Made by a program: the position numbers and the translations under genes. The notes under the pieces were generated by a model. It did not search any database, was not told the DNA's origin, and saw nothing but the letters and a program-made list of their open reading frames with translations. This document shows, in pieces, positions 12,287 through 63,610 of a DNA stretch of 64,000 bases (position 1 is its first letter; each line of letters opens with the position of its first letter). The stretch is from an uncultured delta proteobacterium (GTDB lineage Bacteria > Desulfobacterota > Binatia > UBA9968), in assembly GCA_963727625.1 (NCBI GenBank), contig CAVSHR010000004.1, forward strand, positions 928,001-992,000, in the 5' to 3' direction.

Positions 12287-13276
12287 ATGTCGCACCGTCG
12301 AATATTTTCTTTGCTCGCCTTGATCGCCTTTCTGAGCACAAGCGCAACCGCAAGCTCACAGGAAAAACTGCGGCTCGCTTGGGCGGGCTTCAGTCCGACC
12401 AACAGCCCGATCTGGACGATTGAGGACAGAAAATTATTAGAGAAACAAGGCGTCGACCCGGAAATCATCGCGATCAATGCCAGCCCAACGGTGCTTCAGG
12501 CGCTGTTGGCGAACGAGATCGATGCCGCCAGCATTTCGGTCACGACTCTAACCAGCTCGCGCCTCCAGGGCGCCGACACGGTGATGATCGTCGGTGTCGT
12601 GCCGACTTTCGTCGACCACATCATTTCGCTCTCGAGCATCACCAAGGTCGAACAATTGAAAGGTAAAATCGGCGGCGTCAATCGTCTCGGCAGTACTTCC
12701 GATCTCGGCCTTCGGCTTGCGCTTCGGAAACTCGGCGTGGATCCGGAGAAAGACGTAAAGATTATTCCGGTAGGCGGCAATGCGGAACGTTTTGCAGCGT
12801 TGTCCAAGGGACTCACGCAATTTACCATCATGCCCGAACCGTTCTTGACCCAGGCCGAACGGCTCGGCTTTCACAACTTCTACAACGTAAGCGAGCTGAA
12901 GATTCCGTTTTGGTGGAATGGGATTATCACGCGCGAAAGCATTCTTAAAAAGAAACGGCCGCTGATGCTCAAGCTTGCCCGCGCCATGGTCGAAGCGATT
13001 CACATCATCAAGACGGAAAAGAGCTACGCGATCAACCTTATCAAGAAACATCTGGGCGTGAATGACCCCGAAGGGTTGGAGCGCGCGTACCGAGATTACT
13101 CCAGCATCTTTCCGGAAGTCCCCTACCCGACTCCTGATGGAGTCAAGACCATGCTCGACGATCTCGCGCCAAAGAACCCCAAGGCGGCAACCGCGGATCC
13201 AAAAGCGTTTGTCGATCCGAGCCTGATTAAAGAATTGGATTCGTCCGGGTTCATCAAACGGCTGTACAAGAAGTAA
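12287..13276 (+). CDS. ABC substrate-binding protein, NMT1/SsuA family
   Basis: signal peptide; QLKGK.GGVNRLGSTSD, SSGFIKRLY; GGAGGAG RBS. Confidence 0.85.
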   Translation: MSHRRIFSLLALIAFLSTSATASSQEKLRLAWAGFSPTNSPIWTIEDRKLLEKQGVDPEIIAINASPTVLQALLANEIDAASISVTTLTSSRLQGADTVMIVGVVPTFVDHIISLSSITKVEQLKGKIGGVNRLGSTSDLGLRLALRKLGVDPEKDVKIIPVGGNAERFAALSKGLTQFTIMPEPFLTQAERLGFHNFYNVSELKIPFWWNGIITRESILKKKRPLMLKLARAMVEAIHIIKTEKSYAINLIKKHLGVNDPEGLERAYRDYSSIFPEVPYPTPDGVKTMLDDLAPKNPKAATADPKAFVDPSLIKELDSSGFIKRLYKK

Positions 13277-13296: not shown

Positions 13297-13353
13297 TGGA
13301 GCGATGGAGTATCGGGCTTGCGAAAACCCGGGTCTCCATCACTCCAGTAATCC
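13297..13353. repeat. degenerate GGAGTNNT-octamer palindromic element (empty copy)
   Basis: tggagcgat ggagtatc ggg ... cccg ggtctcca tcactcca; same unit as 25771/26289 and 62574. Confidence 0.65.
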
Positions 13354-25205: not shown

Positions 25206-25760
25206 CTAGTTGTTTTCCAAAAAGGTCAGCCGCTCCGCCATCGGCGTTTCCGGAAAGATATAGCCGCAAGCCCGGCAGGTTCGCAGTTTCGGATCGGCGT
25301 TGAATTCGGCATAGACGGCGGAGACCTGCGAAGGGATGTTGCCTTGATTGACGATTCGCGACAACACCAGCTCATCGCATTTTTCACAGAACCAGGCGAA
25401 TTCTTCTTTTTCTTCCTGCCGGCGCTTGCGCTCGATCACCAGGCCCCAGGTGTTTTCGAAGCGGCGCGGCGAGTGCGGCAAGCCGCCCGGACAAACCAAG
25501 ATTTCCCCTTCTTTAATCCACGCCGACTGCCGGCGCTCCCCGTCCGGTTTGAGCACCAATTCCATCTGCCCTTCGACCTGATAGAAAAACTCATCTCCCG
25601 GCTCGATATGAAAATCCAGCCGAGTATTCGGCCCGCGCAGCATCATGACAAGAAAGTCTTTGTGATGAACCATGAGCTTGTTGGTGCGAAACGGCGGGTT
25701 GAACAGATGCGCGTTCTCTTTAACCCAATTCCTCAAATGGACTGTGGATAGTAATTCCAT
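25206..25760 (-). CDS. 3-hydroxyanthranilate 3,4-dioxygenase-like cupin (NbaC/HAO family)
   Basis: GPN.R.DFH...GDEFFYQ, PHSP.R, GLVIER, rubredoxin-like CEKC/CRAC. Confidence 0.82.
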   Translation of the reverse strand: MELLSTVHLRNWVKENAHLFNPPFRTNKLMVHHKDFLVMMLRGPNTRLDFHIEPGDEFFYQVEGQMELVLKPDGERRQSAWIKEGEILVCPGGLPHSPRRFENTWGLVIERKRRQEEKEEFAWFCEKCDELVLSRIVNQGNIPSQVSAVYAEFNADPKLRTCRACGYIFPETPMAERLTFLENN

Positions 25761-25770
25761 GGAAATCCTT

Positions 25771-25807
25771 TTGGAGTGATGCAGTAGTGGAGTGTTGAAG
25801 TAATGGG
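25771..25807. repeat. left arm: four GGAGTNNT-like octamers
   Basis: tt ggagtgat gcagtagt ggagtgtt gaagtaat ggg. Confidence 0.8.
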
Positions 25808-25828
25808 TCTCGGAACCTACCCACCCCG

Positions 25829-26260
25829 CTACCCATACGTTTCATTACTCTCCTTGACGATTAAGTTATCGATCCAGTCTCCATCCAGTTTTTTTCTTTC
25901 AAGGCTTTCAACTAACTTTAGCAAACCGTTCTCTAGTTTATAGGCCAGTTGATCGAGCACCGAAAAGTCTTTATCGCTAATCTGCCCTGCAGTCCGATAT
26001 GCGTGCAAACCTGAAACGCTCTCGCCCAGTGATCCTAAGGCAATGTTGAGGAAATTCAGATACTCTCGGATCGATCGACGACAATACCCTTCAGCAATTT
26101 TCCGGTGTACCGAATCGCTGGCCGCGATTGCCTGCGATCCGATCCGTTTCAACTCATAAGGCAGTTTTCCGAACACGTGACTGGACAGGCGATAGAATTC
26201 TATGGCATCCTGTCAAATCCGGAGTTGCTGATAGCCACAATTTTTGTTCTTCAGCGCCTC
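25829..26260 (-). pseudogene. four-helix-bundle protein (TIGR02436/23S rRNA IVS protein/Avd-like) with in-frame TGA at 26213-26215
   Basis: frame reads ALKNKNCGYQQLRI*QDAIEFY...SDSVHRKIAEGYCRRS..EYLNFL.IALGSLGE; the family L.VWQ Trp is replaced by TGA. Confidence 0.8.
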
Positions 26261-26288
26261 AAAACTCCATCAGTCCAGTTTTCTCTTG

Positions 26289-26325
26289 CCCAACACTCCA
26301 GTACTCCAATACTCCATCACTCCAA
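26289..26325. repeat. right arm: four inverted octamers complementary to 25771-25807
   Basis: cc caacactc cagtactc caatactc catcactc caa. Confidence 0.85.
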
Positions 26326-27099
26326 CTACTTTGCCTTCCCTGCTTCCCTTGCCACCCCGTCGGTCAATGCCCACCAGATCGACAGGCCTTTGCGCAGCGC
26401 CTTGAGCACGCGGACTTGTAGTTCATGGGTCGTTGCAAGCTGTTCGACCAGCTCGTAGCCGATGTTGCTATGCTCGGTGTCGGCCTCGCCATGCTCGGCG
26501 AAGAATTCTATGTCGTGAGGCTTGAGTCCGTAATTATCCCGAAACGTCCGGAAAAACTTTCCGCCGGTCAACTGGTTGGAGAATTCGTTGCAGCAGTTGG
26601 TCGACGCCAGCTGTTCGAGAATGTGGTTGCTTCTCAGCGCGATGTCGAGCCAGCCGACGCGGGCCAAAACCGTCGTTGGCAAAAAATCTTCCTCGGTTTC
26701 GCAACGCTCCATTTCCTTGGCTGGGATACCGATGCTCTCGCCGAAGCGCAGGAACAACGCCCTGTGGCCCAATACTTTTCGCGGTGACCCTTCGAAGTAG
26801 CTGTAACCGACTTCCGAATGAATGACATCGACGAACTTCTTGTGGATCTCCGGATCGTGGATGCCGGACAACTGGCAGCGCACCAGCTTGGCGGTGTTGA
26901 TCGCCACGTTGTAAGCGAAGATACCCCAGGCTTCCTTGGCCCAAATCTTCACAGCCTCCAACGGCAGCTTGCCTTGGTAAAGATCCAAGTAGAACGGATG
27001 GTGCAAACGGGCATGACCGTTTTTCACCTCGTTGACCAAGACTTCACAGAATTCTTGAGTCGCTAGAGTCTTTCCTCTCAGTACCGCTTCAGCAGACAT
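26326..27099 (-). CDS. heme-oxygenase-like diiron protein (TenA/PqqC/CADD family)
   Basis: HHPFY..L..G.L, E...H, E and FF.EH...D.EH ligand pattern. Confidence 0.8.
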   Translation of the reverse strand: MSAEAVLRGKTLATQEFCEVLVNEVKNGHARLHHPFYLDLYQGKLPLEAVKIWAKEAWGIFAYNVAINTAKLVRCQLSGIHDPEIHKKFVDVIHSEVGYSYFEGSPRKVLGHRALFLRFGESIGIPAKEMERCETEEDFLPTTVLARVGWLDIALRSNHILEQLASTNCCNEFSNQLTGGKFFRTFRDNYGLKPHDIEFFAEHGEADTEHSNIGYELVEQLATTHELQVRVLKALRKGLSIWWALTDGVAREAGKAK

Positions 27100-61441: not shown

Positions 61442-62557
61442 TTACTCGATTTTGTACAAACGCGCGCAGTTGTCCCACAGGATCTTCCGCCGGTTGTTCT
61501 CGGTCAAGCCGCCGACCTCGAGAAATTCATCGATCGCGTGGGGAAAGTGCGCGTCGATGTGCGGGTAGTCCGTGGACACGACCAGATTGTCGTCGCCCAG
61601 CCGCTTGACAACGTCAGTGACCAGATATTCGTCCGGGTCCACCGAGATGAAACATTGCTCGAGAAAATACTCGCTCGGCTGACGTGACAGCGGCACGTCA
61701 GCCAGCGGGCCGTGAAGTTTTGCTCGCTCGTCAAGCCGATACAGCAGCCAGGGGAGCCAGGCGCAGTTGCCTTCCAAAAACGCTACCCGGAGCTTGGAAA
61801 ACTTTTCCAGTACGCCGCCGGCGCAGAAGCTCGACACCGCTTGAATCAGCTCGACGGGATTACGCAGCGCGAGTGCGATGATGTTGGCGTTGGGATGGCC
61901 GAAAAATTTGTTCGCCACTTGGTCTTGCTTAGGCCGCGCCGGCGGATGAAAGCACAGCGCGACACCAAGCTGTTCGATTTCCGCCCAAAGCGGATCGAAG
62001 CAGCGGTCATGAATCCGCCTGCCGTTGATCGGCTCGGGACAAAGAGACAGTGCCCGGATGCCTAGCTGACCGACGACGCGCCGTACTTCGTCGACCGCGA
62101 GATCGACATCGTGGAGCGTAATCAGGGCCGACGCTTTGAGCCTTTGCGGGTTCTCTTTGCAAAAATCCGCAATCCAGTCGTTCCACGCCTTACACAGATC
62201 GTTGGCGTACTCGGGCTCTAGGGTTTCGTCGCAGTGCAGCGGTGAGGTGCGAAACAAGACTGCCATGTCCAAGCCTTCCCGGTCCATCGCTTCCAGCTGC
62301 GACACCGAGTCGTAGTCCCGGGCCACGGCAAAATCATAGCGATCGGCCACCTGCTTTTGGCCATGATCGATCACGTCGGTGATCGCTCGCAAGGTTTCTT
62401 TACCGCCGCCCAACTTGAACTCGACCCGGCCATGTTTGCCGTTTCTCTGTCCACGCGGGATCCGCTCGCCCCACTTGGGGTTCATGTATTTCTCGTAGAG
62501 AAACGCCGGATCGTAAACATGCATGTCGCTGTCAAAGGCGCGCAATCCATTATTCAT
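61442..62557 (-). CDS. amidohydrolase_2 family protein (ACMSD/LigW-like)
   Basis: D.D.H, MD.EG.D, WNDW, FH, FLE....W, STDYPH.D. Confidence 0.9.
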   Translation of the reverse strand: MNNGLRAFDSDMHVYDPAFLYEKYMNPKWGERIPRGQRNGKHGRVEFKLGGGKETLRAITDVIDHGQKQVADRYDFAVARDYDSVSQLEAMDREGLDMAVLFRTSPLHCDETLEPEYANDLCKAWNDWIADFCKENPQRLKASALITLHDVDLAVDEVRRVVGQLGIRALSLCPEPINGRRIHDRCFDPLWAEIEQLGVALCFHPPARPKQDQVANKFFGHPNANIIALALRNPVELIQAVSSFCAGGVLEKFSKLRVAFLEGNCAWLPWLLYRLDERAKLHGPLADVPLSRQPSEYFLEQCFISVDPDEYLVTDVVKRLGDDNLVVSTDYPHIDAHFPHAIDEFLEVGGLTENNRRKILWDNCARLYKIE

Positions 62558-62573: not shown

Positions 62574-62651
62574 TTGGAGTGGTGGAGTTTTGGAATACTG
62601 GAGTATTGGCAAACCCATCATTCCAACACTCCATTACTCCAGCACTCCAAT
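62574..62651. repeat. GGAGTNNT-octamer palindromic element (empty copy, four units per arm)
   Basis: tt ggagtggt ggagtttt ggaatact ggagtatt gg-caaac-cca tcattcca acactcca ttactcca gcactcca a. Confidence 0.85.
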
Positions 62652-62656
62652 CTCGG

Positions 62657-63610
62657 CTATTTCTTGCTACTCAACGCCTTCTGCACCTCGCGTATCAGCT
62701 TGAAGTCCGCGACCTCCGAATTCGCCACCGGCCGCTCGATCTTCATCGTTTTGCGTCCCTGGTCGACCACCAGTTTGAGGCCGCTATCGGAGATCGTCCC
62801 GTCCTCGCTGAAAATCTTCCAGGTTGCATCGTAAGTCGCCGCCGCACTTTCCCGATCGACCTTGATCCAATCCATCATCGTCTGAATCGTCCCCTCGCGA
62901 TTCGACCGCACGAAGCGATTGGCGCGCAGCAGGGCTTTGAGCATGCGCTTGACTTCGTCGGGCTTCTCTTTGAGTTTTTTTAAATGGGTGCCGAGCCCGG
63001 TGAACGGGAGTTTGAAATGTTCGTAGAAACGCGACAACACATGATAACCCTGCCGCTGTGCGTCCGTGTCAGTGGGCGGGGACAAAACCGCGACGTCGAC
63101 AATCCCCTCTTTCAAGGCCGCATAGCGCGATCGCTCGCCGCCAAGAGGAACAATCTTCAGCTCTTTTTCCGGATCGAGCCCGCCCTGCCTCATCATCATG
63201 CGCGCCGCCACGTCCGAGGTTGCGCCGAACGTGCTGACGGCGAGCGTCTTGCCCTTTAAATCACGAATCGATTTGTACTGGGGCCGGGCGATCAGCAGAT
63301 GCGTCGAGCTGTCCATGAAGCTCGCCACCACCCTCATCGGCATGCCGCGCAGCGCGCCGCGCACCACTGAGGCAAAAACCATCGTGTAATCAATATCGCC
63401 GGTGCTGAGCGCCGTCACCGATACGTTGGCGTTCATCCGGATAAGTTCCACTTCCAGGCCTTCGTCGCGAAACATGCCGCGCTTGAGCGCTACCCCCGAT
63501 GTGAGAAAGGACACGTCGACGGCCGAAATCGACATACGAACCTTATCCGCGGCGCTCGCTGTTCCCGCGGCCAGCAACAACGCTAAAACAACAACCGTCT
63601 TTCGTCTCAT
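62657..63610 (-). CDS. ABC substrate-binding protein, NMT1/SsuA family
   Basis: signal peptide; GMFRDEGLEVE, DLKGK.LAVS.FG. Confidence 0.85.
   Translation of the reverse strand: MRRKTVVVLALLLAAGTASAADKVRMSISAVDVSFLTSGVALKRGMFRDEGLEVELIRMNANVSVTALSTGDIDYTMVFASVVRGALRGMPMRVVASFMDSSTHLLIARPQYKSIRDLKGKTLAVSTFGATSDVAARMMMRQGGLDPEKELKIVPLGGERSRYAALKEGIVDVAVLSPPTDTDAQRQGYHVLSRFYEHFKLPFTGLGTHLKKLKEKPDEVKRMLKALLRANRFVRSNREGTIQTMMDWIKVDRESAAATYDATWKIFSEDGTISDSGLKLVVDQGRKTMKIERPVANSEVADFKLIREVQKALSSKK

Follow-up and report, generated by a model that had tools for sequence, protein, structure and literature searches.

A decayed four-helix-bundle gene between inverted octamer arrays in a bacterial operon: a candidate intervening cassette with a REPIN/RAYT-like layout

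Introduction

Why does a small gene lie between two inverted arrays of octamers that, together with it, fill the entire spacer between two enzyme genes of a bacterial operon? We encountered this arrangement in a window of 64,000 nucleotides from an uncultured delta proteobacterium of the class Binatia (assembly GCA_963727625.1, contig CAVSHR010000004.1, positions 928,001 to 992,000), and all coordinates below are positions within that window. The enclosed frame belongs to PF05635, a very common family in bacteria whose only understood relative is Avd, the DGR accessory protein, which has a nucleic-acid-associated role. We know of no catalytic activity in PF05635 and, to our knowledge, the family has no nuclease or transposase motif. 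It is called functionally uncharacterised in the passage of bioRxiv 10.1101/2024.02.27.582315 that deals with it, and the corresponding part of PMC4990558 describes it as having no known function. A preliminary description of the window regarded the locus as one of a family of filled and empty elements that may be processed out of mRNA or spread without a transposase of their own.

Results

A cassette fills the spacer between two operon genes

An inverted-repeat search located the arms at 25771-25807 and 26289-26325; they are 37 nt long, 81% complementary and 481 nt apart. Each arm consists of four 8-nt units, which read TGGAGTNN on the sense (minus) strand. Repeat and profile searches confirmed that these arms enclose a four-helix-bundle frame, as the preliminary description had claimed, and its statement that the unit lies without any gap between the HDO stop codon and the AAGGA ribosome-binding site of the dioxygenase gene was confirmed from the sequence. 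The features are listed below in the order of transcription.

26326..27099, minus strand: upstream gene 'HDO', encoding a heme-oxygenase-like iron-containing redox enzyme (PF14518 58.3 bits, PF03070 35.9 bits)
26289..26325, minus strand: 5′ arm, four TGGAGTNN octamers plus GGG (inverted repeat of 37 nt, 81% complementary)
26258..26288, minus strand: inner 5′ region, made up of CAAGAGAAAAC and then a second, degenerate array of octamers (TGGACTGA TGGAGTTT), from a comparison of orthologous spacers
25829..26257, minus strand: PF05635/TIGR02436 four-helix-bundle pseudogene with stop codon TAG at 25829-31, from profile matches and orthologue comparison
25805..25817, minus strand: inner 3′ motif GGTTCCGAGACCC, a homologue of the end (...TCCGAAACCC) of the loops in cargo-less hairpins
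25771..25807, minus strand: 3′ arm of inverted octamers, NNACTCCA, which are more degenerate than those of the 5′ arm (inverted repeat)
25206..25770, minus strand: 3-hydroxyanthranilate 3,4-dioxygenase gene with its AAGGA ribosome-binding site (PF06052 136.5 bits)

The cassette occupies the whole spacer from the HDO stop codon to the 3-HAO ribosome-binding site. On the minus strand, the 5′ arm abuts the TAG stop codon (26326-28) of the PF14518 gene (26326-27099), and the 3′ arm is directly followed by AAGGA (25766-70) and then by the ATG (25758-60) of the 3-hydroxyanthranilate dioxygenase gene (25206-25760). The second octamer array is longer in orthologues, where its last GGAG lies 6 nt upstream of the GTG start. 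The site is flanked by protein-coding genes (PF14518 and PF06052) and is not in a 23S or 16S rRNA helix. By-eye inspection of the arm ends (GTAG/TTGGAG ... CTCCAA/AAGG), including those of orthologous spacers, revealed no direct repeat of the kind left by target-site duplication.

The enclosed four-helix-bundle gene has decayed

With its in-frame stop read through, the enclosed frame matched PF05635 at 56.3 bits; the portion after the stop scored 52.1 bits (cut-off 33.8), and the match to TIGR02436 reached 63.6 bits (cut-off 24). PF05635 was the sole Pfam match of the gene, and no match to the HUH Y1 transposase was obtained. The link of this protein family to rRNA IVS proteins and to Avd, which the preliminary description had put forward, is documented in the relevant passages of PMC4990558 and PMC10053308. 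The enclosed frame is broken. An in-frame TGA (26213-15) occurs where intact orthologues encode Trp (TGG), and GCG (26255-57) stands in place of their GTG start codon. The local gene is thus a pseudogene that has lost its start codon and gained a nonsense codon. An alternative code with TGA read as Trp was rejected, since the neighbouring genes read normally in table 11 and the orthologues use TGG. A frameshifted start at ATG 26267-69, which is out of frame, was also discarded because the orthologues start with GTG directly after the arm.

When an intact orthologue was used as the query, the closest solved structures were 2GSC (E 8.7e-7) and 2RLD. PADLOC defence models returned no family for the intact orthologue or for two paralogues. 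The PF05635 paralogues within this genome share only 18-34% identity, which indicates that the filled copies have not recently multiplied.

Alleles at the orthologous site

Comparison of orthologous loci, a check proposed in the preliminary description, yielded filled, remnant, empty, other-hairpin and absent alleles. Seven alleles were filled at full length: four with intact cargo (G033, G037, G003 and G007), two with nonsense mutations and one with a frameshift (G005). The others comprised one remnant, one empty octamer hairpin and nine alleles with another hairpin or none; unrelated hairpins in this spacer included a CACGAAGG hairpin in G006 and CGCAAAG arrays in G031 and G036. The arms matched at 36/38 and 34/36 positions in intact alleles, versus 30/37 in dead alleles and 11/13 in the remnant, and arm length differed among orthologues by whole repeat units. 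Among G037, G003 and G007, the dN/dS of the intact cargo was 0.04-0.05, with dS of 0.5-1.5 or saturated. The intact cargo is thus under strong purifying selection, yet it is frequently lost.

The cognate octamer-armed gene was found in one copy per genome. In G105, which belongs to another genus, the cognate four-helix-bundle subfamily occurred with the same octamer arms between different genes. These findings show that the arms and the gene form one heritable unit, which three or more genera retain at this site and a further genus carries elsewhere. The cassette is a long-established, vertically transmitted resident on which purifying selection acts; it has been repeatedly lost and has not been spreading recently. 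What remains of the earlier idea of a spreading element is this single relocation together with the arms.

Cargo-less hairpins and dispersed octamer arrays

The window contains two further octamer hairpins, neither of which is assigned to a strand.

62574..62651: cargo-less octamer hairpin with 4+4 units and loop GGCAAACCC, lying between two genes that both run on the minus strand
13297..13353: degenerate cargo-less octamer hairpin, downstream of the stop codon of ORF 12287-13276 (plus strand)

Both had been noticed in the preliminary description. The first proved to be real, with folding energies of −43.5/−47.8 kcal/mol (z −6.0/−8.3), and lies between the stop codon of ORF 62657-63610 (minus strand) and the start of ORF 61442-62557 (minus strand). 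The degenerate copy is likewise present and folds at −31.3/−34.8 kcal/mol; the next gene begins about 100 nt later.

Across the genome, we detected 52 GGAGT arrays with a period of 8 and three or more units, compared with approximately 0 expected from a shuffle. A 3-unit octamer pattern occurred 9-380 times per genome in 31 genomes of the genus, and the reversed pattern occurred 0 times. These array counts rest on motif-period scans; TRF-based and strict autocorrelation scans for array pairs, which are insensitive to units with variable spacers, gave 24 and 6 pairs, respectively. The octamer family of this genome comprised 18 paired cargo-less hairpins versus one filled copy. The loops of the cargo-less hairpins end in GGG...TCCGAAACCC, the same ends that border the cargo of the filled copy, which supports the filled/empty family proposed earlier and points to homology of the two forms, loop ends included. 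Sixteen of 19 empty hairpins were located between co-directional genes and none between divergent genes, and they occurred in both orientations relative to transcription.

Octamer hairpins reached up to 34 per Mb in genomes in which the cognate gene was not found, and the protein is therefore not required for their persistence. Median octamer density was 29 per Mb where the cognate gene was intact (n=4) versus 16 per Mb in the comparison set (n=23; one-sided Mann-Whitney p=0.014, not corrected for phylogeny).

Inverted tandem arrays around PF05635 and GxxExxY genes

We scored a locus as array-flanked when the local inverted-repeat alignment between its 250-nt flanks reached at least 31, the 99.9th percentile of 3000 random positions. 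By this measure, flanking inverted arrays were present at 6 of 11 PF05635 loci in this genome (5 of 11 fell below the threshold), at 17 of 26 in relatives (G005 left out) and at 53 of 78 from many phyla (25 of 78 below the threshold). As a control, ordinary genes were examined, and only 7 of 1497 had such flanks. GxxExxY nuclease-like genes, searched for in 21 related genomes, carried flanking inverted arrays at 19 of 22 loci.

In the phylum-wide PF05635 set, 84 of 93 detected arms had a period of 7, with a median of about 4.4 units, and 18 of 72 loci were not co-oriented with both neighbours. A stricter period test found period 7 in 59 of 160 flanks versus 2 of 149 displaced control flanks. 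The GxxExxY arms had period 9 in 14 of 16 cases, and their units share a C[AG]C[AG]AAG core. Across phyla, PF05635 genes are thus usually placed within a repeat hairpin, as are GxxExxY genes in the 21 related genomes, and the repeat period is specific to the cargo family, being 7 for four-helix-bundle and 9 for GxxExxY genes.

The preliminary description had also proposed testing octamer hairpins for co-location with TIGR02436 genes. Co-location was seen for the cognate subfamily, to which GGAGTNNT arms are restricted, and not for other PF05635 genes, which have their own units, mostly heptamers. The unit AGGCANT flanks one four-helix-bundle subfamily in MAGs labelled Deltaproteobacteria, Ignavibacteriaceae, Bacillota and Planctomycetota. 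Dispersed repeats agreed with the arm units. In five genomes with AGGCA-type four-helix-bundle arms, AGGCANT arrays numbered 14, 20, 312, 0 and 13, the count of 0 coming from the genome whose arm units are AGGCAAC; in five genomes whose four-helix-bundle gene has other arms, the counts were 0, 0, 0, 0 and 3.

When this genome was surveyed without bias, by a seed-based search, for inverted repeats separated by 250-1000 nt, 37 were obtained, of which five were four-helix-bundle or GxxExxY loci. About nine of the 37 enclose IS200-like Y1 transposase genes (three checked, PF01797 46-65 bits), and one encloses a DUF559 endonuclease-like gene. As a separate observation, a soil MAG labelled Deltaproteobacteria shares its flanks with one paralogous locus (L044).

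RNA folding and strand signature

The preliminary description had suggested that the arms could pair in the mRNA. In agreement with this, the minimum-energy and centroid RNA folds are both predicted to pair the arms across about 480 nt (z −4.45). A search of sequencing runs listed no RNA run that contains this sequence, and the sampled words were present in any one run at a fraction of 0.13 at most. When we examined 353 arm mismatches from 95 loci, there was no G·U bias: 84 were G·U-compatible on the sense strand and 83 on the antisense strand. Because G·U and A·C mismatches were equally frequent, this test gives no support to selection on RNA-level pairing, and their strand symmetry implies that arm complementarity may be maintained at the DNA level.

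Discussion

We put at about even the probability that this dead, operon-embedded locus is a cassette of the IVS type, with a layout like that of REPIN/RAYT, which RNase III would loop out. Such a cassette would consist of a small PF05635 gene (S23p/Avd-like and pentamer-forming) between inverted short tandem-repeat arrays, the arms of which are predicted to pair within the polycistronic mRNA. By analogy with the 23S rRNA element, RNase III would cut the near-perfect stem (36/38 bp in intact orthologues), and the cut stem would leave the cassette looped out of the host transcript. The 5′ arm would provide the cassette gene with its GGAG ribosome-binding site and could also hide that site. Probably, the core motif repeated in its own arms and in the dispersed copies is what the protein recognises; the system would then be an analogue of RAYT/REPIN that has no transposase. 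The copy studied here has no start codon left and contains a nonsense codon, and its arms are decaying.

A broader proposal, which we advance tentatively and hold to be less probable than the looped-out cassette itself, is that PF05635 and GxxExxY proteins may be trans-acting partners of tandem-repeat hairpin families, forming a second, transposase-free REPIN/RAYT-like system that spans many phyla and in which the 4-5 units per arm serve as binding sites for a pentameric ring. If true, one rule would cover ORF-bearing rRNA intervening sequences, the excess of heptamer repeats and the multi-copy operon genes annotated as 'four helix bundle protein'.

The strand-symmetric arm mismatches (84 vs 83) are what constraint at the DNA level would be expected to leave, and they lead to the best-surviving alternative, a REPtron-like action on DNA, which we regard as somewhat unlikely. 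Here, the four-helix-bundle protein, or the PD-(D/E)XK-like GxxExxY protein, would work on array hairpins or cruciforms and promote the spread or upkeep of the arrays as RAYTs do for REPINs, and effects on RNA would be secondary. The Y1 transposase genes enclosed by inverted repeats in this genome have the known RAYT/REPIN layout, and the cognate gene, present once per genome, is passed on vertically and has frequently been lost. Arms are better kept in intact than in dead alleles; repeats are also denser where the cognate gene is intact, although this comparison is uncorrected for phylogeny, and hairpins are plentiful in genomes lacking the gene. A role in DNA processing is further weakened by the lack of a known nuclease or transposase motif in PF05635 and by the lack, on inspection by eye, of target-site duplications at the arm ends.

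Quite improbable, in our judgement, is the alternative in which the arms are unrelated to the protein, the hairpins being independent REP-like intercistronic stabilisers or terminators in whose loops small promoterless genes such as the four-helix-bundle gene land or stay. REPs of E. coli typically lie between co-directional genes and are not known for placement between divergent ones, and the empty hairpins are placed in the same manner (16/19 and 0). The ratio of 18 paired empty copies to one filled copy in the octamer family, the unrelated hairpin families that fill the same orthologous spacer in different species, and the Xanthomonas GGGAATC arrays, with 70-75 convergent pairs and no associated gene described in the passage on them (PMC4692102), would all fit such independence. 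It is difficult to reconcile with the joint movement of arms and cargo to a new site in G105, with the constancy of the AGGCANT unit beside one four-helix-bundle subfamily in MAGs of differing labels, with the cargo-family-specific period and unit consensus, and with the rarity of such flanks around ordinary genes (7/1497).

A classical transposable element or MITE, with the arms as TIRs for a transposase encoded elsewhere, the four-helix-bundle gene as cargo and the empty copies as MITEs, would account for the terminal inverted repeats, the cargo-less derivatives and the one relocation, and similar ideas were voiced for rRNA IVSs by Burgin et al. and Ralph & McClelland (as related in the discussion of PMC4990558), but it is very improbable given that inspection by eye showed no target-site duplication at the ends of the arms, that the arm sequence differs for every paralogue, so that no single transposase could serve all, that the filled copies are ancient, divergent and not multiplied, and that arm length changes in steps of whole units, a pattern that suggests slippage more than fixed termini.

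In our literature search, mostly of openly accessible papers, no publication turned up that associates PF05635 or GxxExxY genes with inverted tandem arrays on their flanks; the closest published remark was the passage in PMC4990558 on tandem heptamers in the Coxiella IVS. The setting of PF05635 genes in such hairpins, together with the dispersed cargo-less copies, connects three puzzles that had been described separately, namely ORF-bearing rRNA intervening sequences, genome-specific heptamer families and orphan small genes in operons. It offers a testable hypothesis, a protein-repeat partnership combined with RNase III looping-out from mRNAs, and the gain, retention and loss of such cassettes can be followed, as in a natural experiment, in the filled, empty and absent alleles of a single orthologous site.

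Comparison with known systems

RAYT genes are reportedly flanked by inverted REPs, an arrangement said to go back to Nunvar 2010, Bertels & Rainey 2011 and Ton-Hoang 2012. The cassette resembles this system in having a single-copy, vertically inherited and often-lost gene between inverted copies of a repeat that is dispersed as intergenic hairpins, and the same layout is seen around Y1_Tnp genes elsewhere in this genome. Unlike in REPIN/RAYT, the cargo is a four-helix bundle (or a GxxExxY PD-(D/E)XK-like protein) and not an HUH transposase, and the repeats, instead of being a single palindromic REP, are 7-9-mers in tandem that combine a conserved core with a variable spacer.

Heptamer families have been described in Xanthomonas (GGGAATC, 70-75 convergent pairs) and Nostoc (GGGGA(C/T)T) in a passage of PMC4692102, and in Beggiatoaceae (TAACTGA) in a passage of PMC4679880. 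As portrayed there, they are genome-specific, intergenic, often in inverted pairs and conserved in position between related species, as are the arrays studied here; these passages of the two papers do not link heptamer arrays to PF05635 or GxxExxY genes.

The resemblance of PF05635 to Avd is noted in the part of PMC10053308 that compares 4DWL with 2GSC, and 2GSC is described as a homopentameric toroid in the introduction of PMC4990558. The PF05635 gene product shares this homologous four-helix-bundle fold and family with Avd. Unlike DGR Avd, the gene sits in a metabolic operon, and no reverse transcriptase was found among six neighbouring ORFs (with PF14518, PF06052, PF00903, PF01243 and PF06210 matches).

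A close counterpart is the 23S rRNA IVS of Coxiella burnetii and Leptospira, in which, according to the passages of PMC4990558 on these elements, an S23p ORF encoding a PF05635 protein lies in the loop of a long stem of terminal inverted repeats. The same passages report tandem heptamers beside the start codon of the Coxiella IVS, variable in number among strains, an ORF that is often decaying, and horizontal acquisition followed by vertical maintenance. Unlike the rRNA IVS, the cassette has as its host an operon mRNA spacer between enzyme genes, not 23S helix 25 or 45; both of its arms are tandem octamer arrays, and cargo-less copies are dispersed genome-wide. Excision by RNase III was shown experimentally for the rRNA IVS, as stated in PMC4990558, and for the operon cassette it is proposed by analogy. 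The two share a PF05635 gene inside terminal inverted repeats that form a stem, a stem that in the operon cassette is predicted.

The cassette locus

The cassette at window positions 25771-26325 comprises a four-helix-bundle (4HB; PF05635/TIGR02436) gene enclosed by inverted octamer arms, in a stretch where every gene is carried on the minus strand.

Features of the cassette locus, in minus-strand order
26326-27099, minus: heme-oxygenase-like iron enzyme gene (PF14518), followed by its TAG stop
26325-26289, minus: 5′ arm, octamers TGGAGTNN x4, after the TAG stop
between 5′ arm and PF05635 frame, minus: short spacer and degenerate second octamer run
26257-25829, minus: PF05635/TIGR02436 reading frame
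between PF05635 frame and 3′ arm, minus: motif GGTTCCGAGACCC
25807-25771, minus: 3′ arm, four inverted octamers
25760-25206, minus: 3-hydroxyanthranilate dioxygenase gene (PF06052)

The arms are 81% complementary over 37 nt, and the AAGGA and ATG of the dioxygenase gene abut the 3′ arm with zero gap. The locus sequence and profile matches confirmed the preliminary description of a 4HB frame within inverted octamer arms between two operon genes. That description was correct, including its view that the protein needed to be "repaired", since the layout, the arms and the broken frame all match: the conserved Trp codon of the motif LRVWQDA has become an in-frame TGA (26213-15), and the GTG with which four intact orthologues start is GCG here (26255-57). 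The copy at this locus is a pseudogene in decay.

The octamer hairpin family

The genome under study (G000) contains 52 GGAGT arrays of period 8 with at least three units, against a shuffle expectation of about 0. At a two-unit threshold we found 20 forward/reverse array pairs, namely the filled locus and 19 short pairs, two of which have an arm in common, giving 18 distinct cargo-less hairpins. Their loops typically open with GGG and close with (T)TCCGAAACCC, while the cargo of the filled copy is bracketed by GGGCAAGAG... and ...GGTTCCGAGACCC; because the loop ends correspond to these bracketing motifs, filled and empty forms are homologous beyond the octamers, as the proposed filled/empty family implied. 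The two other hairpins named in the preliminary description, an empty one at 62574-62651 and a degenerate one at 13297-13353, gave strong folds (z -5.7 to -8.3). When the degenerate hairpin was added to the 18 cargo-less ones, 16 of the 19 lay between co-directional, three between convergent and none between divergent ORFs, with hairpin-to-ORF gaps mostly below 25 nt. The three-unit octamer pattern was present in all 31 genomes of the genus (9-380 matches each), across which a reversed control pattern gave 0 matches. The octamer hairpins constitute a genuine repeat family.

History of the orthologous site

We recovered the orthologous spacer, from the iron-enzyme stop to the dioxygenase start, from 18 genomes of the genus. 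Seven hold a full cassette, which is intact in G033, G037, G003 and G007, carries a nonsense codon in two genomes (G000 and G028), and is frameshifted in the unpublished genome G005. The other spacers contain an internally deleted cassette remnant (G002), a degenerate empty octamer hairpin (G026, 93 nt), an empty CACGAAGG hairpin with the GxxExxY type of arm (G006), CGCAAAG arrays (G031 and G036), a REP-like element of the CCCGCGCACGCGGG type that surrounds the G000 DUF559 gene (G030), or 65-84 nt with a small hairpin (G011, G032, G034 and G038); G012 is essentially without a spacer. Filled, empty and absent alleles, proposed earlier as the comparison to make, were all found among these spacers. 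In the G002 spacer (locus L141, 1047 nt), an extra iron-enzyme-like gene, recognized by eye, lies between the upstream iron-enzyme gene and the remnant.

In a midpoint-rooted tree built from the two flanking proteins, with moderate support values, filled alleles were interleaved with the others, and cargo divergence tracked the flank tree. The simplest reading is an ancestral cassette followed by many independent losses or replacements. Because intact orthologues show dN/dS of 0.04-0.05 at dS of 0.5-1.5, the cassette protein has long been under strong purifying selection; synonymous sites are saturated in comparisons involving G000 or G033. The cognate 4HB subfamily was found in at most one copy per genome; of 123 genomes in the order, 11 gave a match, and these all belong to one family. 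It occupies the same site in G077, from a different genus; in G105, which represents a further genus, its neighbours are unrelated genes, yet the octamer arms are the same, which implies at least one joint move of arms and gene as a unit. Arm matches were 36/38 and 34/36 in two intact alleles, 30/37 in G000 and 11/13 in the remnant; in this small sample, arm quality tracks gene integrity.

Inverted arrays as the setting of PF05635 and GxxExxY genes

Nearly all of the ten other PF05635 genes in G000 are bracketed by inverted short tandem-repeat arrays, each gene with its own repeat unit (AGGCATT, CGTTCAANN, CTGAGGN, AGGGCAT, GGATTTT, TTCGGA-type, GACCGAC-type). We scored arms by local alignment of the two 250-nt flanks of each gene, the downstream one reverse-complemented, with a threshold of at least 31.

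Loci with an arm score of at least 31
PF05635, G000: 6/11 (all six at least 34)
PF05635, relatives, G005 excluded: 17/26
PF05635, MAGs and isolates of many phyla: 53/78
GxxExxY, G000 and relatives: 19/22
Control, ordinary G000 genes: 7/1497
Control, 3000 random positions: 99.9th percentile = 31

The phylum-wide set carries the labels Deltaproteobacteria/Desulfobacterota, Bacteroidota, Ignavibacteria, Bacillota, Planctomycetota, Acidobacteriota, Patescibacteria, Alpha-, Beta- and Gammaproteobacteria, and others. Its PF05635 arms are tandem arrays: 84 of the 93 detected have period 7, and the median arm contains 4.4 units. A stricter test gave period 7 in 59/160 flanks versus 2/149 controls taken 600 nt away. 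Where both neighbours were called, 54 of 72 loci were co-oriented with both.

GxxExxY genes, which are nuclease-like, form a second cargo family. One G000 array pair encloses a GxxExxY protein (TIGR04256, 134 bits; PF13366), and inverted arrays flank 19 of 22 such loci in G000 and its relatives (21 of 24 with G005). The units read C[AG]C[AG]AAG(G)NN; of the 16 arms detected, 14 have period 9, and an arm contains about three units. Since these are 9-mers with their own core, as against PF05635 heptamers, repeat period and core are cargo-family-specific. 4HB and GxxExxY genes may not be the only cargo of array hairpins. The earlier interpretation, which took the octamer as the signal around 4HB genes, is partly supported, by the allele series and the predicted pairing; the signal lies in family-specific tandem arrays, and the octamer as such is not general.

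Several individual loci were also recorded. On G000 contig C4, inverted CGTTCAA nonamer arrays surround a 229-aa frame with weak, sub-threshold ferritin-like/MiaE-like matches (C4:140371-141246), and inverted AGGCANT heptamer arrays surround a 209-aa frame for which a Pfam search gave no match (C4:769287-769988). Contig C11 has five PF05635 genes together with a GxxExxY gene within about 85 kb (C11:200000-285000; loci L003-L007 and L011), an apparent hotspot for cassettes of this kind; at least some neighbours are sugar-nucleotide/polysaccharide biosynthesis-like by eye, such as an RmlC-like frame beside C11:202353. At L003 (C11:281887-282195), the 4HB frame continues through the downstream CTCAGNN heptamer array as a 185-aa open frame, so either the array is partly translated or the original stop was lost. 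Arrays can be very long: about 20 GTCCGA(A/G) heptamers lie downstream of the gene at locus L059. A stretch of N interrupts the arrays at locus L064, suggesting assembly breaks at these repeats; several matches in genomes G109 and G125 lie at contig ends.

Dispersed repeats and their cognate genes

Other arm units are likewise dispersed in G000: AGGCA (period 7, 22 arrays), CGTTCAA (period 9, 60 arrays), CTGAG (period 7, 21 arrays) and AGGGCA (period 7, 5 arrays), each with a shuffled-sequence expectation of about 0. CGTTCAA arrays show a strong strand bias (17 forward vs 43 reverse) and a single short hairpin pair, being mostly solo direct arrays in contrast to the octamer family. Three-unit AGGCANT matches numbered 14, 20, 312, 0 and 13 in five genomes with AGGCA-type 4HB arms, the genome with 0 having an AGGCAAC unit, and 0, 0, 0, 0 and 3 in five with a homologous gene but other arms. 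Octamer density was 27-69 per Mb in four genomes with an intact cognate gene versus 3-34 per Mb in 23 where the gene was not found (one-sided Mann-Whitney p = 0.014), a link that is only suggestive, given overlapping ranges and the relatedness of the genomes. There is good support for arms and gene making up a single unit connected with a dispersed repeat family.

Possible RNA-level and DNA-level action of the arms

An RNA-level role for the arms and hairpins is consistent with the predicted fold, which had been suggested as a check: in a 591-nt transcript model, the arms pair in both the minimum-energy and centroid structures (z -4.45). It also fits the location of the cassette and empty hairpins inside co-directional gene pairs, and the excision by RNase III of an element of the same kind from Coxiella 23S rRNA (PMC4990558). 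The 5′ array of intact orthologues has its last GGAG 6 nt upstream of the GTG start, so the 5′ arm doubles as a ribosome-binding site, whose GGAG would be sequestered by the ACTCC arm. By analogy, RNase III likely cleaves the stem in transcripts of intact alleles. Against a selected RNA structure, however, transition mismatches at 95 strong-arm loci were evenly divided (84 sense G·U-compatible, 83 antisense-only-compatible), and empty hairpins occur in either orientation.

A DNA-level logic resembling REPIN/RAYT draws on an unbiased G000 scan, which returned 37 inverted repeats 250-1000 nt apart. The 4HB and GxxExxY loci account for five of these, and IS200-like Y1 transposase genes lie inside about nine (three Pfam-confirmed as PF01797, the rest assigned by eye); a DUF559 gene (PF04480) lies inside another.

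A conserved core next to a variable spacer, together with about 4-5 units in each arm, makes it a plausible hypothesis that the pentameric protein recognizes the repeat core.

The Y1 genes, outside the window, have their own inverted repeats of several distinct types in a RAYT/REPtron-like layout. The DUF559 endonuclease-like gene (122 bits; C5:711567-712386) lies between inverted REP-like copies of the CCCGCGCACGCGGG type.

IS200-like Y1 transposase genes in G000
C13:3888-4650
C4:223281-224290
C4:363083-363890
C6:141821-142593
C8:235729-236738
C8:240878-241886
C9:287860-288859
C4:1092409-1093201

Comparison with known systems

Each component is known in isolation: rRNA intervening sequences (IVSs), Avd homology, heptamer arrays, and REPIN/RAYT systems, which are already established. 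Our literature search, of incomplete coverage, did not find stated either a general nesting of PF05635/GxxExxY genes in inverted tandem-repeat hairpins or dispersed arrays as cargo-less counterparts of such cassettes; the local pseudogene brings to light a genomic design that is widespread and, it appears, has not been described before. Published accounts describe ORF-bearing rRNA IVSs (PMC4990558), PF05635-Avd homology (PMC10053308), heptamer arrays of Xanthomonas and Nostoc, including 70-75 convergent pairs (PMC4692102), and TAACTGA repeats of Beggiatoaceae (PMC4679880). The closest likeness is the Coxiella 23S rRNA IVS, the same kind of element as the cassette: as described there, the terminal stem of this RNase III-excised element is 28 bp, and tandem GACAGAT heptamers, variable in number among strains, precede the start of S23p, the ORF inside the IVS (PMC4990558).
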